In this document: piece by piece, positions 3,504 to 13,672 of the stretch
How the letters are laid out: each line of letters begins with the position of its first letter
How positions within the stretch are numbered: position 1 is the stretch's first letter
NCBI GenBank assembly: GCA_003641745.1
Contig: QNAI01000066.1
Location: forward strand, 1,367-17,366
Origin: Verrucomicrobiota bacterium
Lineage (GTDB): Bacteria > Verrucomicrobiota > Verrucomicrobiia > Opitutales > Opitutaceae
Length of the DNA: 16,000 nucleotides
Reading direction: 5' to 3'
Position numbers and translations under genes: made by a program
Notes under the pieces: generated by a model
Seen by the model: only the letters and a program-made list of their open reading frames with translations
Database searches by the model: none
What the model was told of the DNA's origin: nothing

Positions 3504-3620
3504 AATTCGAGGGGTTGGAGGTTCGTGCGTGGTGACCCTTGTCTTCGGTCAGGAAATGCGCGAATGACCACATTTCGATTTCGTTCGAATAGACGGGAAT
3601 GCATCCACCCGGCAAAAGGC

Positions 3621-3758
3621 AGGATGCTGGGAATTTTAGACAGGATTAACAGGATTGACTGGATTTGCTTCTGCAGGGCTTGAAAAGACAGAGACGGTGA
3701 TAAGCCGCTCGTTTCTGATGATTCATAGCCATCTGCTGTTCCCAGCCAGGATCCTGTC
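3621..3758. repeat. Family-1 intergenic structured repeat, copy A (3' arm truncated)
   Basis: The 27-nt block 3638-3664 is 26/27 identical to 12381-12407, and ggatcctgt at 3749-3757 is identical to 12486-12494. Helix P1 pairs 3626-3633 gctgggaa with 3739-3746 ttcccagc. Helix P2 pairs 3689-3695 cagagac with 3711-3717 gtttctg. Arm pairing joins 3639-3646 gacaggat with 3751-3758 atcctgtc. Confidence 0.8.
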
Positions 3759-3793
3759 CATAAGAGACCTGAGGCATGGGGGCTCGGTTGAGT

Positions 3794-4498
3794 TCAGTCT
3801 GGATTCAGAAACAGACCTGCGCCTGCCTCATTGAGGTCTTCCAGCAGGTCCGAGGTTCCGTCGATCAGGACCCGCAGGTCACCACCACTCGGGATCGAGA
3901 AAGAGACCTGGTGGGGCAGCAATCTCATTTCGATCGATGTCCCGGGCGCCTTCAGGGTCAGCCATGATGCGTCCGCGGCATAGTCGAGAAGGGGTGCCAG
4001 TTTATCGGAATCTTCGATCCGGTCGATCGTTCCTTCGAGGTCGATGGTTTGAGTGAATTCGATCAACACCGAATCGCAATAGTGGCGGAATATCTCGATG
4101 AAGCACGCACGGGTTACGACCTCCCTCGAGGTTATGGCGGCCACTTCGGTTCCGATTCGATAGGACCTTGCGTCATCCGGATCCTGATCGATCCAGAGCG
4201 TCACCGTGAAGTCGGGTGTCTTGATGATGCCGGTTCCTTCTTCGCAGGAAAAAGAAAGTCCCTTCCGTTTGAGGTGAAACGCCGTCCGGATGTCCCGGTG
4301 GAGTTGCTCTGCGCGGTCTTCCAGATCGGGGCTTCCTGCTTTTCTGGTGAACGCCTCCGTCGCCTGGGAATGCCGATCGGGTTCGCGGTGCACGCCTTTG
4401 AGAAAGCCACGCAGTCGCCGTATGCGACCCACGTCCCAACCACGCAGGCGCGCCTGATGGAACGGACTTGAAGATTCGTCAGCTTTCTTCTCAGGCAT
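3794..4498 (-). CDS. Hypothetical protein (no recognisable family)
   Basis: 234-aa ORF in the same orientation as its neighbours. Arg-rich N-terminal third and acidic C-terminal two thirds; no signal peptide or TM segment seen and no motif I can name. Coding status is inferred from length and lack of a competing supported ORF. Confidence 0.6.
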   Translation of the reverse strand: MPEKKADESSSPFHQARLRGWDVGRIRRLRGFLKGVHREPDRHSQATEAFTRKAGSPDLEDRAEQLHRDIRTAFHLKRKGLSFSCEEGTGIIKTPDFTVTLWIDQDPDDARSYRIGTEVAAITSREVVTRACFIEIFRHYCDSVLIEFTQTIDLEGTIDRIEDSDKLAPLLDYAADASWLTLKAPGTSIEMRLLPHQVSFSIPSGGDLRVLIDGTSDLLEDLNEAGAGLFLNPD

Positions 4499-6208: not shown

Positions 6209-6389
6209 TGAACCACAGAGGACACAGAGGACACAGAGAATAAAAAGGAAGAGGCTCGGAATGAAAATTATGTTTGGAGAATTTTATATACTGAGTCTCG
6301 TCAGATGGAATAGCTGGTAAGTGAGGTTCCTGCGCGAGCGAATGGCCTGTTTCCTGAACCTCTGTGCTCTCTGTGTCCTCTGTGGTTCA
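6209..6389. repeat. Family-2 long inverted repeat built of tandem 9-mers, enclosing an AT-rich 119-nt insert
   Basis: 6209-6229 tgaaccacagaggacacagag is perfectly complementary to 6369-6389 (21 bp). After 2 mismatches, 6232-6238 pairs with 6360-6366. The arms are tandem 9-mers (ccacagagg acacagagg acacagaga). My hand count for 6241-6300 in the interior is 20/60 G+C. Confidence 0.85.
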
Positions 6390-10271: not shown

Positions 10272-10400
10272 CGGAGCTCCTGATAAGTTCTTTCGCTACG
10301 GGCACGGACGATCCCCCCTGCTGATGCAGGGCTGTCCGCCGGGAAGTCGCGCGGGGCATATTTGTTGACTCTCCAAAGTCTTCGCCCGATAAGAGGCCTC

Positions 10401-11396
10401 ATGATTTTTGAATCCAGAGCCTATGCACGTGCTGGTTTGCTGGGAAATCCGTCCGATGGGTATTTTGGCAAGACCATCTCGATTGTGGTCCGGAACTTCG
10501 GGGCCCATATTTCTCTATATGAATCCCCTGAACTGCATATAGAGCAACAGGCGGAAGATCAGAACATATTCAGAAATATATATCAGTTGGTGGAGTCTGT
10601 TGACCTGACCGGCTATTATGGTGGTGATCGATTGATAAAGGGCGCCATCAAGAAGTTCTGTGAGTTCTGTGATTCCCAATCGATTCGACTGCACGGAAAA
10701 AATTTCACCATAAGGTACCGATCGTCGATACCACGCCAGGTCGGCCTGGCCGGCTCAAGTGCCATCGTTACGGCCACCATCAAGGCTTTGATGGCGTTTT
10801 ATGAAGTGGAGATTGAGGATGAAATCCTGCCCAACCTTGTTCTTTCGGTGGAGACCGAAGAATTGGGCATCAATGCCGGCCTTCAAGACAGGGTCATCCA
10901 GGTTTATGAAGGTTGTGTGTTCATGGACTTTGAAAAGACCATCATGGAGTCGCAGGGTCATGGGGATTACGAACGCATTGACCCATCGCTTCTACCAAAC
11001 CTGTTCATTGCCTATAAGACAAATCTGGGGAAGGTATCCGGTGCTGTGTTCAGCGACGTGAAGGCCCGATTTCTGGAAGGAGACCCCCTTGTGGTCGATA
11101 CCCTGGCGGAAATAGCCGAGGTCGCGGCAAAGGGGAAAAAGGCCATCTTAAGTGGCGATCACGGTCAATTGGCCAAACTTGTTGATAGGAACTTTGACCT
11201 CAGGTGCAAAATATTTTCCATCAGTGAGAGCAATCGTGAGTTGGTAACCGTCGCACGGAAATGTGGAGCGTCGGCAAAATTCACCGGTTCGGGAGGATCC
11301 ATTATAGGAACCTATGAAAGTGATGAAATTTTGCGGAGTCTCATTATTAACATGAATGCCCTGAAGGCAAGGGTGATCAAACCATTCATAAACTAA
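10401..11396 (+). CDS. GHMP-family sugar-1-kinase, glucuronokinase-like
   Basis: Track ORF starts at TTG 10362. I prefer ATG 10401, preceded by aagagg at 10391-10396. The GHMP motif is IPRQVGLAGSSAIV. GLLGNPSDGYFGKTIS, GYYGG, LGINAGLQDRVIQVY, GHGDYERIDPSLLP, NFDLR and GASAKFTGSGG match motif-for-motif what I recall of plant glucuronokinase (GlcAK). Confidence 0.75.
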   Translation: MIFESRAYARAGLLGNPSDGYFGKTISIVVRNFGAHISLYESPELHIEQQAEDQNIFRNIYQLVESVDLTGYYGGDRLIKGAIKKFCEFCDSQSIRLHGKNFTIRYRSSIPRQVGLAGSSAIVTATIKALMAFYEVEIEDEILPNLVLSVETEELGINAGLQDRVIQVYEGCVFMDFEKTIMESQGHGDYERIDPSLLPNLFIAYKTNLGKVSGAVFSDVKARFLEGDPLVVDTLAEIAEVAAKGKKAILSGDHGQLAKLVDRNFDLRCKIFSISESNRELVTVARKCGASAKFTGSGGSIIGTYESDEILRSLIINMNALKARVIKPFIN

Positions 11397-11404
11397 AGGG
11401 CATT

Positions 11405-12283
11405 ATGATTAAGAAAGCAGTAATACCGGCAGCCGGACTTGGAACAAGATTTTTGCCTGCGACCAAGGCGCAGCCAAAAGAAATGTTACCCATCATTGAT
11501 ACGCCTACCATTCAATATGTGGTTCAGGAGGCGGTTGATTCGGGTATCGAGGACATTCTGATAATCAGTGGCAGGAACAAGCGGGCGATGGAGGATCATT
11601 TTGACCGGAATGTTGAATTGGAGGATCGGCTGGCCAAGGAGGAGAAGGACACGCTATTCAATGAGATTCGACATATTGCGGATATGGCAAATATCCATTA
11701 TGTCAGGCAGAAGGAGATCCTTGGATTGGGAGATGCCATATATTACGCGCGATTCCACACGGGGAATGAGCCGTTTGCGGTGTTGCTTGGTGATACGATC
11801 ATTAATTCGGTCATGCCGGTGACCCAGCAGCTGATTGATGTGTATGAACAGTATCAGGCGACAACGGTTGCGGTGGAGGTCGTGCCAAGAGACAAGGTGT
11901 CGAGATATGGGATTGTGGGCGGCGAGAAGTTGAGCGACCATATCATGGCGATCGACCAGTTCATCGAAAAACCGTCGGTTCAGGAGGCGCCGTCAAATCT
12001 GGCGATTGCCGGCAGGTATATACTGACCCCGGAGATTTACACCGCATTGGAGCAGACGCCGAAAGGCAAAAACAATGAACTCCAGCTCACTGATGCCCTG
12101 ATGAACCTTACCCATAAGGAAAAGGTGGTCTCTCATACTATTCAGGGCAAAAGATATGACATTGGCAATAAGTTGGATTACTTGAAGACAACCGTGGAAT
12201 TTGCCTTGCGCCGAAAGGAGTTCGCAAAACCGTTCTATGACTATCTGAAGAAGATCGTGGAGGAGAATGACAGGCCACTCTGA
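11405..12283 (+). CDS. galU: UTP--glucose-1-phosphate uridylyltransferase (GalU type)
   Basis: 292-aa ORF. The N-terminus KAVIPAAGLGTRFLPATKAQPKEMLPIIDTPTIQYVVQEA and the motifs RYGIV and EKP are canonical for GalU/GtaB. It starts 8 nt after the kinase stop. Confidence 0.9.
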   Translation: MIKKAVIPAAGLGTRFLPATKAQPKEMLPIIDTPTIQYVVQEAVDSGIEDILIISGRNKRAMEDHFDRNVELEDRLAKEEKDTLFNEIRHIADMANIHYVRQKEILGLGDAIYYARFHTGNEPFAVLLGDTIINSVMPVTQQLIDVYEQYQATTVAVEVVPRDKVSRYGIVGGEKLSDHIMAIDQFIEKPSVQEAPSNLAIAGRYILTPEIYTALEQTPKGKNNELQLTDALMNLTHKEKVVSHTIQGKRYDIGNKLDYLKTTVEFALRRKEFAKPFYDYLKKIVEENDRPL

Positions 12284-12364
12284 ATTATTCGAGACGGCCA
12301 ACGAGGCAAGGATATGGGTGCGTTGGGTTTCCCGGTTTTCTGCAAAACGCTTGAACAGACCCCA

Positions 12365-12512
12365 GTCTGAGAAGAAGTTCAGACAGGATTAACAGGATTG
12401 GCTGGATAGGTTTCTGAAGGCTCTGAAAGGACGGAGAAGGCGATAGGTCGTTTTTCTCTGATCATCATGATCTTCTTCTCAGACCGGATCCTGTGAATTC
12501 TGTTAATCCGTC
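12365..12512. repeat. Family-1 intergenic structured repeat, copy B (full-length arms)
   Basis: Helix P1 pairs 12365-12377 gtctgagaagaag with 12472-12484 cttcttctcagac (13 bp, perfect). Helix P2 pairs 12432-12440 with 12452-12460. The arm helix pairs 12382-12399 with 12496-12512 (17 pairs, one bulge, one G-U). An A7 run follows at 12513-12519. Confidence 0.85.
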
Positions 12513-12538
12513 AAAAAAAGTTTCGAAGGGTTAGTCTC

Positions 12539-13672
12539 CTAGAACGCCTCAACGAGTTCCACCATCTTCTCGTAGTTTCGCAACGCCAGGGCCGGCAGTT
12601 CCCGCCCATAGGGACAGGATGATGGCATCAGGACGAATCCCCGGCCGGTTCCTGATGTTCCTTCCTCGAGGGCGCGTTTGATTTTTTCCGCAAACCGGTC
12701 AGTGGGCAGGTTCTCGATGTCATTTGATTCGAGATTGCCGAAGAGGACCATGTCCCTGCCGTATCGTTCCCTTACATAGGCCAGTTCAACGTCGCCTTGG
12801 GGAGGCGGTTCGATGGGATCGAGCGCATCCGCGCCCAAGGCAGCGATATCATCCAGAATGGCCTTGAGATTTCCGTGTGAATGGATGCGGGCAAATCCGC
12901 CAAACCTCTGGATTGTCTCAACCATGGGCCTCACATACCGGCATACATACTCCCGGAACAGATATGGCGGCAGGAAGGGAGACGAGGCGTACTCCGGACC
13001 GAATATCCGCCAGAGACGACCGGGCAGTGCTTTGGCCACGGCCTCTGTCTTTGGCAGGAGGGTCGAAGCAAAGCGCTCCAGAAGTCTGTGAAAGAGGGCC
13101 TGTTCGGTCAGGGCGATCACCGTGTAGTCGGCCAGGTCAAACAATCCTGCCGCAAGGCAGAGCGGATCGGGTGTGTCGATCATCACTATTCCCGTGTCGC
13201 CCAAGGCGGTCTCCGCTTGAATGACCGCCTCAGTGGCCATCGCGCCCTTCGAATCGGGCTCGGGTATCTCCAGGAACGCTTTCAGGTCATCGACATTCTT
13301 GAGCAGCGGTTCGACGGTCCACACCGTGTCTATGCCGGGGTCGCGCCGGGTGAGTGAGGTCAGGGTACGGGTTCCGATCTGAATGCGCCTGCGGGTGAAA
13401 CGGTTCCCATCGCGCATATAGGTTTTGGCCTCCGAGATCGATTCAATCGGATCGGGTTGGATGCGGGCAAAGGAAACACCTCGCAGGACAATGCGATCGG
13501 TCTTTTCCCGGGCCAGATCAATCAACGGCCGCCAGGATGGATGGTTGAAGATGTTGAACGGATCACTGTCGTCAGGATCCTGATTCATACCGTTCAGTTC
13601 ATAGAATGAGACCGGAGGCCGATCTACCTGCTCGCCACGCAAGGTGGCCATGAGTCTTTCCCGTCGGTTCAT
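12539..13672 (-). CDS. Uroporphyrinogen decarboxylase (URO-D) family protein, probably a non-HemE paralogue
   Basis: 377-aa ORF. The N-terminus MNRRERLMATLRGEQVDRPPV is the typical URO-D/MtaA-family start and the length fits a TIM barrel. No heme-biosynthesis neighbours. Confidence 0.7.
   Translation of the reverse strand: MNRRERLMATLRGEQVDRPPVSFYELNGMNQDPDDSDPFNIFNHPSWRPLIDLAREKTDRIVLRGVSFARIQPDPIESISEAKTYMRDGNRFTRRRIQIGTRTLTSLTRRDPGIDTVWTVEPLLKNVDDLKAFLEIPEPDSKGAMATEAVIQAETALGDTGIVMIDTPDPLCLAAGLFDLADYTVIALTEQALFHRLLERFASTLLPKTEAVAKALPGRLWRIFGPEYASSPFLPPYLFREYVCRYVRPMVETIQRFGGFARIHSHGNLKAILDDIAALGADALDPIEPPPQGDVELAYVRERYGRDMVLFGNLESNDIENLPTDRFAEKIKRALEEGTSGTGRGFVLMPSSCPYGRELPALALRNYEKMVELVEAF

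Follow-up and report, generated by a model that had tools for sequence, protein, structure and literature searches.

The intergenic element between the GalU-like and URO-D genes in this stretch, which we call copy B, is probably one decaying copy, without a gene, of a repeat cassette of the hairpin type, the ends of which are inverted tandem arrays of the nonamer ACAGGATTN. Its own genome has six full copies of an intergenic repeat of about 185 nt (family 1), of which this region is one. We reject both a designed RNA pseudoknot or switch and a terminator as readings of it. The long helix between its two arms would be the terminal inverted repeat of the element. A second helix that crosses it, P1, would be another inverted repeat, a degenerate one that matches the left extension of the element to the segment just inside the right arm and that is perfect in copy B alone. 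The crossing order would then be a by-product of the layout of the element and not a designed pseudoknot. The result is mainly a clean-up, in that copy B has no place in a catalogue of new structured RNAs. Of greater interest is the wider class: inverted arrays of short tandem units that enclose nothing, a GxxExxY gene, or a four-helix-bundle gene, found across phyla and in viral contigs. The window (the whole stretch of 16,000 nucleotides that was analysed) adds one gene-less family to this class, and the genome adds the observation that each gene copy has a repeat unit of its own.

Two crossing helices in copy B

The features of copy B, its flanking genes, and the second copy in the window (copy A) are as follows, with positions counted from the first letter of the window.

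11405..12283, plus strand: upstream flanking gene, NTP_transferase (GalU-like), pointing into copy B
12350..12381, plus strand: left extension of the family-1 repeat, from homology among the six copies, the alignment, and the fold
12356-12369, plus strand: small local hairpin inside the left extension, predicted by the fold and vying for bases of the P1 5′ strand
12365-12377, plus strand: P1 5′ strand, within the left extension
12379..12468, minus strand: 29-codon mini-ORF within copy B, weakly evidenced
12382..12408, plus strand: left arm, three tandem ACAGGATTN-type nonamer units; 5′ strand of the arm helix
12409..12471, plus strand: family-1 core, providing the hairpin with its loop and imperfect inner stem, 75-89% identity among copies
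12472..12484, plus strand: P1 3′ strand, perfect complement of 12365-12377 in copy B alone; in the plus-strand fold, part of the inner stem of the arm hairpin
12485..12512, plus strand: right arm, three nonamer units in an inverted array; supplies the 3′ strand of the arm helix
12513..12519, plus strand: A7 run, part of the outer palindrome
12539..13672, minus strand: downstream flanking gene, URO-D family, pointing into copy B
3608..3770, plus strand: copy A of family 1, right arm truncated to one unit

Base by base, P1 of copy B (12365-12377 with 12472-12484) consists of 13 Watson-Crick pairs with no mismatches. The arm helix joins 12382-12384 and 12386-12399 to 12496-12512 in 17 pairs, 16 of them Watson-Crick and one G-T, leaving A12385 as a bulge; in the minimum-free-energy fold it is lengthened by 6 pairs, to 12407/12488. 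A run of seven A residues (12513-12519) lies directly 3′ of the right arm on the plus strand. Copy A has 8 perfect pairs in each helix, 3626-3633 with 3739-3746 for P1 and 3639-3646 with 3751-3758 for the arm. The order in both copies is 5′ P1, 5′ arm, 3′ P1, 3′ arm, and the helices cross. The coordinates and pair counts that the preliminary description gave for copy B (13 bp for P1 and 17 pairs for the arm) are correct, and the crossing order that it claimed for both copies in the window is confirmed, with 8 + 8 bp in copy A.

To assess P1, we folded the 35 nt before the left arm against about 35 nt before the right arm and compared the duplex with 300 shuffles. None of the 300 dinucleotide shuffles reached the copy B duplex on either strand; its perfect 13-bp P1 is far beyond chance. 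As an origin of the crossing, the nesting of two hairpin elements was considered and rejected, since the order x, n, x′, n′ is impossible by nesting.

Copy B belongs to a dispersed intergenic repeat

We searched the organism's own genome, an assembly of 307 contigs that is 83% complete, with the 161-nt region as query. The search returned five further near-full copies and many partial matches. An nhmmer profile found six full copies, two each on contigs C66, C8, and C87, and, beyond these, a 5′-truncated copy on C24 and two distant relatives (C196 and C16). The six copies are homologous over a stretch that opens about 29-39 nt before the left nonamer array and closes just past the right array, so that the unit of family 1 consists of a left extension, a left arm, a core, and a right arm. 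The presence of a left extension outside the left arm is odd for a simple terminal-inverted-repeat element. Of the criteria for a MITE, family 1 shows terminal inverted repeats, small size, and many copies; no direct repeats indicative of a target-site duplication flank its copies. All seven copies in the genome (the six full ones and the C24 partial) are intergenic and lie in mixed orientation relative to their neighbors. Five of the seven are within about 75 nt of a neighboring ORF stop, and at least one family-1 copy sits in a divergent promoter region.

The full element was absent from all 40 relatives searched, members of the same genus included. Rfam gave no matches at the gathering threshold over the whole window, and a permissive scan of 12300-12580 gave only chance-level hits (E above 5). 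Both family-1 copies on C87 have a CCGGAAGCATG-type motif in common on both of their outer sides.

P1 is not a property of the family

According to the preliminary description, the crossing topology is conserved in family 1. The duplex test does not bear this out: P1 is significant in copy B only. Copy A is marginal on the plus strand, where 9 of 300 shuffles did as well, and on the minus strand the count was 100 of 300; C8a is also marginal (14 of 300). In half of the six copies (C87a, C87b, and C8b), the duplex is no better than shuffles. Paired cells in the six-copy alignment amount to 68% for P1 and 91% for the arms, counts that include copy B, the source of the structure. Pair counts in the same alignment showed no covariation beyond shuffles, the score being equal to the shuffle mean, and RNAalifold predicted the arm helix only, not P1, with a positive, that is penalising, covariation term. 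We also tested the outer flanks against the inner loops of 22 other nonamer hairpins with loops of at least 90 nt, and none of the 44 tests came near significance. A weak purine-rich/pyrimidine-rich complementarity is seen in most copies, the distant C196/C16 pair included. The crossing topology is not a family-1 property. The existence of genomic copies lacking P1 is also what the preliminary description had named as counting against a pseudoknot or switch.

The perfection of P1 in copy B may have a mutational explanation. Its 5′ strand equals the family consensus, and its 3′ strand carries one cluster of departures from consensus, each of which makes a complement to the 5′ strand. Because only the 3′ strand departs, and does so in a cluster, we infer that P1 may have been perfected by templated correction of a quasi-palindrome. 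This would resemble Ripley-type correction by intramolecular template switching, in that one strand of copy B was changed in a cluster to match its partner. It differs in that the process is here read from six copies only, and in that C87a has a similar 3′ variant that is unmatched to its own 5′ strand.

The two helices compete in the predicted RNA folds

We folded copy B as RNA from either strand. Plus-strand RNA gives the arm hairpin, at -61.9 kcal/mol (z = -4.2), and the 3′ strand of P1 is absorbed into its inner stem. Minus-strand RNA gives a fold closed by P1, at -46.9 kcal/mol (z = -2.1); the G-U pairs of the arm turn into C-A mismatches on this strand. The arm helix dominates the plus-strand ensembles of all six copies. 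The expected number of P1 pairs is 14 for the minus strand of copy B, 2.5 for the plus strand of copy A, and about 0 for every other copy and strand. When either helix was blocked, the resulting states lay 12-20 kcal/mol apart on each strand, too far apart for an equilibrium switch.

A knot containing both helices was modeled by keeping the P1 strands free, refolding the remainder, and adding the P1 duplex at -20.0 kcal/mol, with no pseudoknot penalty. This hypothetical structure came to -63.4 kcal/mol against -61.9 for the nested minimum on the plus strand and to -46.5 against -46.9 on the minus strand. The pseudoknot penalty in common energy models is usually several kcal/mol, and once it is added, the knot loses on both strands. 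Full co-formation also appears sterically implausible: the linker between the top of the 13-bp stem and the base of the other stem, of at least 17 bp, is 4 nt, each stem is longer than one helical turn, and threading would be needed. Folding of both strands thus favors neither the H-type pseudoknot nor the toggle that the preliminary description had proposed; the helices compete, with the arm prevailing on the plus strand and P1 on the minus strand. If the region is transcribed, the two helices would be mutually exclusive, with plus-strand RNA forming the long arm hairpin and minus-strand RNA the P1-closed fold.

We therefore regard a dedicated structured RNA, whether an H-type pseudoknot or a P1/arm toggle, as extremely unlikely. 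Such an RNA would account for the presence of two crossing helices in copies A and B, and for a P1 that differs in sequence between these two copies yet pairs in each. Moreover, P1 on the plus strand would be transcribed before the right arm, and a kinetic intermediate is conceivable. Against this stand the absence of P1 from three of the six copies and of covariation, the gap of 12-20 kcal/mol between states, a knot gain of at most 1.5 kcal/mol before the penalty, the probable steric clash, the lack of an Rfam match, and the absence of the element from the 40 relatives.

The arms themselves were examined for selection at the RNA level on one strand. Their mismatches were 61 G-T and 55 A-C in 66 inverted pairs. 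Among the 37 elements with at least two such mismatches, all fell on one strand in 17, where 13.4 were expected. This asymmetry test gave no sign of RNA-level selection on one strand of the arms.

Surroundings of the element and transcript ends

Copy B is 66 nt from the ORF on its GalU-like side and 18 nt from that on its URO-D side. The GalU-like gene (plus strand) and the URO-D gene (minus strand) converge on it, as had been claimed, and the segment of lower GC content reported over the kinase and galU genes is real: GC is 0.48-0.50 over the kinase and NTP-transferase genes, compared with 0.57-0.61 in the URO-D gene and 0.58 in the genome. At a distance of 35 nt, the end of copy A is indeed close to the stop of a minus-strand ORF (3794-4498), as had been claimed.

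The preliminary description was also right that copy B is not a canonical intrinsic terminator. The polarity of the run is wrong on both strands, with A7 after the stem on the plus strand and T7 before it on the minus strand. A terminator scan found no terminator-like sites in 12200-12650, and no U run lies 3′ of the stem on either strand. A scan for sigma-70 promoters found nothing.

Could the element nevertheless have been put to use by its host? Co-option may have turned it into a cis-acting RNA stem at the 3′ ends of the two convergent genes (GalU-like and URO-D), where it would be a site for RNase III to cut, a block to exonucleases, or a terminator of the factor-dependent or roadblock kind; P1 would have no part in this role, which is compatible with a repeat origin. 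The short distances to the two flanking ORFs (66 nt and 18 nt) fit such a role, as do the plus-strand fold (-61.9 kcal/mol, z = -4.2) and the closeness of most copies (five of seven) to a neighboring ORF stop, at distances of up to about 75 nt. rRNA intervening sequences and Correia elements provide precedent. However, no U run follows the stem on either strand and no terminator was matched, the element is not kept beside the URO-D gene in 80 relatives, and the copies lie in mixed orientation, at least one of them in a divergent promoter region. On balance, we consider co-option unlikely, and a repeat cassette remains our preferred reading of copy B. If the cassette affects its host, it would probably do so through a long stem of double-stranded RNA in the 3′ regions of the two convergent genes, for example by offering RNase III a target or by stabilizing 3′ ends, by analogy with rRNA intervening sequences and Correia elements.

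A search for an empty site, the locus without the element, found none. The four closest genomes had no match to either flanking gene at E <= 1e-20. Exact-protein look-ups led to other contigs that carry the copy B locus, all from the same strain and identical. The 80 metagenomic URO-D homologues (53-77% identical) showed no synteny to the copy B locus, and neither the element nor the GalU-like neighbor was found near any of them.

The GHMP-kinase and NTP-transferase pair at 10362-12283 of the window has a GC content of about 0.48-0.50, against 0.58 for the genome. In none of the 80 metagenomic relatives did this pair adjoin the URO-D gene. The pair may be a recent acquisition, with copy B at its right edge. 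Independent short-read contigs of the same strain (Logan, run SRR6478915) stop inside the element, at window positions 12427 and 12441; contig ends inside copy B are the usual assembly effect of a dispersed repeat.

A minus-strand reading frame

The mini-ORF of copy B (12379-12468) is bracketed by P1 on minus-strand RNA, which raises the question of whether family 1 encodes a minus-strand peptide of 24-38 amino acids ending in ...SEPSEAYPVNPVNPV. P1 would then join two stretches of this RNA, the purine-rich ribosome-binding region 5′ of the ATG and the segment that directly follows the stop codon. The minus frame is open for about 20 codons in all eight copies, with an in-frame ATG in five of them. 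Codon pairs with a single difference number 72 synonymous to 107 nonsynonymous, compared with 30:153 and 52:121 in the other frames, and variation by codon position runs 3 > 1 > 2. The P1-closed fold of the copy B minus strand also accords with this reading. However, the pairwise codon counts are not independent, three of the eight copies have a frameshift in a homopolymer run where the frame starts, and the C terminus is the nonamer array read in frame (Asn-Pro-Val; ...PVNPV(NPV)). P1 is strong in one copy only, and there is no evidence from homologues. On the plus strand, no ORF is common to the copies. We find it very unlikely that family 1 encodes this peptide.

Two functional roles for P1 can still be imagined. 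One is a minus-strand peptide with P1-gated translation, so that the second, crossing helix of a mobile hairpin cassette would serve to lock translation; the other is a P1 that acts as a co-transcriptional trap and delays closure of the arm stem. We give this pair a slim chance.

The nonamer arrays are widespread and patchy

We searched for the nonamer arms of copy B more broadly. The genome contains 67 arrays of at least two ACAGGATTN units, compared with none in a reversed-genome control. They typically have a T run upstream, and the inverted pairs are 50-450 nt apart; in most arrays the outer flank is a run of T residues at the left and of A residues at the right. Across the 67 arrays, the first eight positions of the unit hardly vary, whereas the ninth varies freely. 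Conservation therefore applies to a sequence word that recurs every 9 nt, not to perfect pairing.

The exact triple nonamer (ACAGGATTN x3) occurs, among the matches listed, in more than 120 genome contigs from many phyla. The contig titles name Chloroflexota, Verrucomicrobiota, Kiritimatiellia, Bacteroidota, Firmicutes, several Proteobacteria, Acidobacteriota, Planctomycetota, and the archaeon Methanoperedens, again among the matches listed. It is also present in 41 viral (IMG/VR) contigs, several of them labeled as giant-virus bins. Inverted pairs numbered 54 at the first 80 genome-contig loci; the loops of most are 24-185 nt long and unrelated between genomes, and 3 of the 54 pairs enclose GxxExxY genes. 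In contigs of other genomes and of viruses, the palindrome often runs past the nonamers into genome-specific sequence.

Within the phylum, the word is patchy: 8 of 61 sampled genomes carry it, and the sampled members of the same family or order all lack it. GxxExxY genes are present in 7 of the 8 nonamer-bearing genomes and in 24 of the 53 others, a comparison that ignores relatedness. The patchy spread, the absence from the relatives searched, and the mixed intergenic orientation are together what a selfish or horizontally spread repeat would leave, and they do not suit a conserved regulatory RNA. Family 1 would have reached this genome by insertion or horizontal spread.

As for the nonamer unit itself, AACAGGATTA is identical to what we take to be a universally conserved stretch of 16S rRNA just upstream of the 785F site (..AACAGGATTAGATACCC..), which may be a coincidence; the assembly has no copy of the 16S stretch AACAGGATTAGATACCC.

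Gene-bearing cassettes with the same layout

Three small PF13366/TIGR04256 (GxxExxY) genes, of the PD-(D/E)XK nuclease fold, are found in the genome, in the following cassettes.

C63:13171-13626: GxxExxY cassette
C172:1-520: GxxExxY cassette
C12:12700-13220: GxxExxY cassette

The C63 gene is bracketed by inverted ACAGGATTN arrays, a pair at 13171/13626. It shares family-1-type arms, and its protein is not a demonstrated transposase. The other two genes are flanked by inverted arrays of the CGCAGAGR type and the CACGGAGG/CACAGAGA type, so that the tandem unit is an 8-9-mer that differs for each of the three. Similarly, all four PF05635 (23S_rRNA_IVP, four-helix-bundle) genes of the genome, on C305, C35, C4, and C21, are bracketed by inverted arrays, each with its own 7-8-mer. 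This layout extends to other genomes of the phylum: 23 of 29 GxxExxY loci have flanking inverted repeats scoring at least 15, whereas the shifted controls, with a single exception, scored at most 12. Short tandem units make up the majority of the flanking repeats.

A second hairpin in the window, family 2 (6209-6389), has arms of tandem CACAGAGGA units like the arms around the C12 GxxExxY gene. This likeness makes it a probable further member of the class, again without a gene.

Searches of the literature with nonamer strings and with the GxxExxY/PF13366 and IVS protein names found no description of these arms, and no paper on a class of inverted-array cassettes outside rRNA.

Relation to known elements

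The closest parallels are with three kinds of known element. The intervening sequences (IVS) of 23S rRNA, found with or without an S23p/four-helix-bundle ORF in Leptospira, Coxiella, Salmonella, and Campylobacter, likewise have inverted ends that form a long stem around a short loop or a small gene, and the PF05635 (23S_rRNA_IVP) and GxxExxY genes of this genome have the same inverted-array layout. Unlike an IVS, whose stem is processed by RNase III at the RNA level, copy B is located between protein genes and not in rRNA, has tandem nonamers for arms, and contains no ORF of that family.

Correia elements/NEMIS and other bacterial MITEs resemble family 1 in being 100-200 nt long, multicopy, intergenic, and bounded by inverted repeats, and in forming long hairpins when transcribed, often near gene ends. 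They differ in that there is no sequence relation and that no TA or other target duplication is seen in family 1. In addition, the conserved part of family 1 is a subterminal tandem 8+1-mer and not the outermost tip, and its gene-bearing relatives carry a gene of PD-(D/E)XK fold, not a known transposase.

The REPIN-RAYT system is similar in having inverted doublets of a short intergenic motif and a single-gene partner flanked by the same motif, as on C63. Here, however, the partner is a GxxExxY or four-helix-bundle gene in place of a Y1 (IS200/IS605-type) transposase, and the motif is tandemly iterated.

In two places in the genome, C105:1-700 and C87:4750-5870, repeat families are packed head to tail, in arrays of the ACAGGATTN, CGCAGAGA, and AGAATTAAG types.
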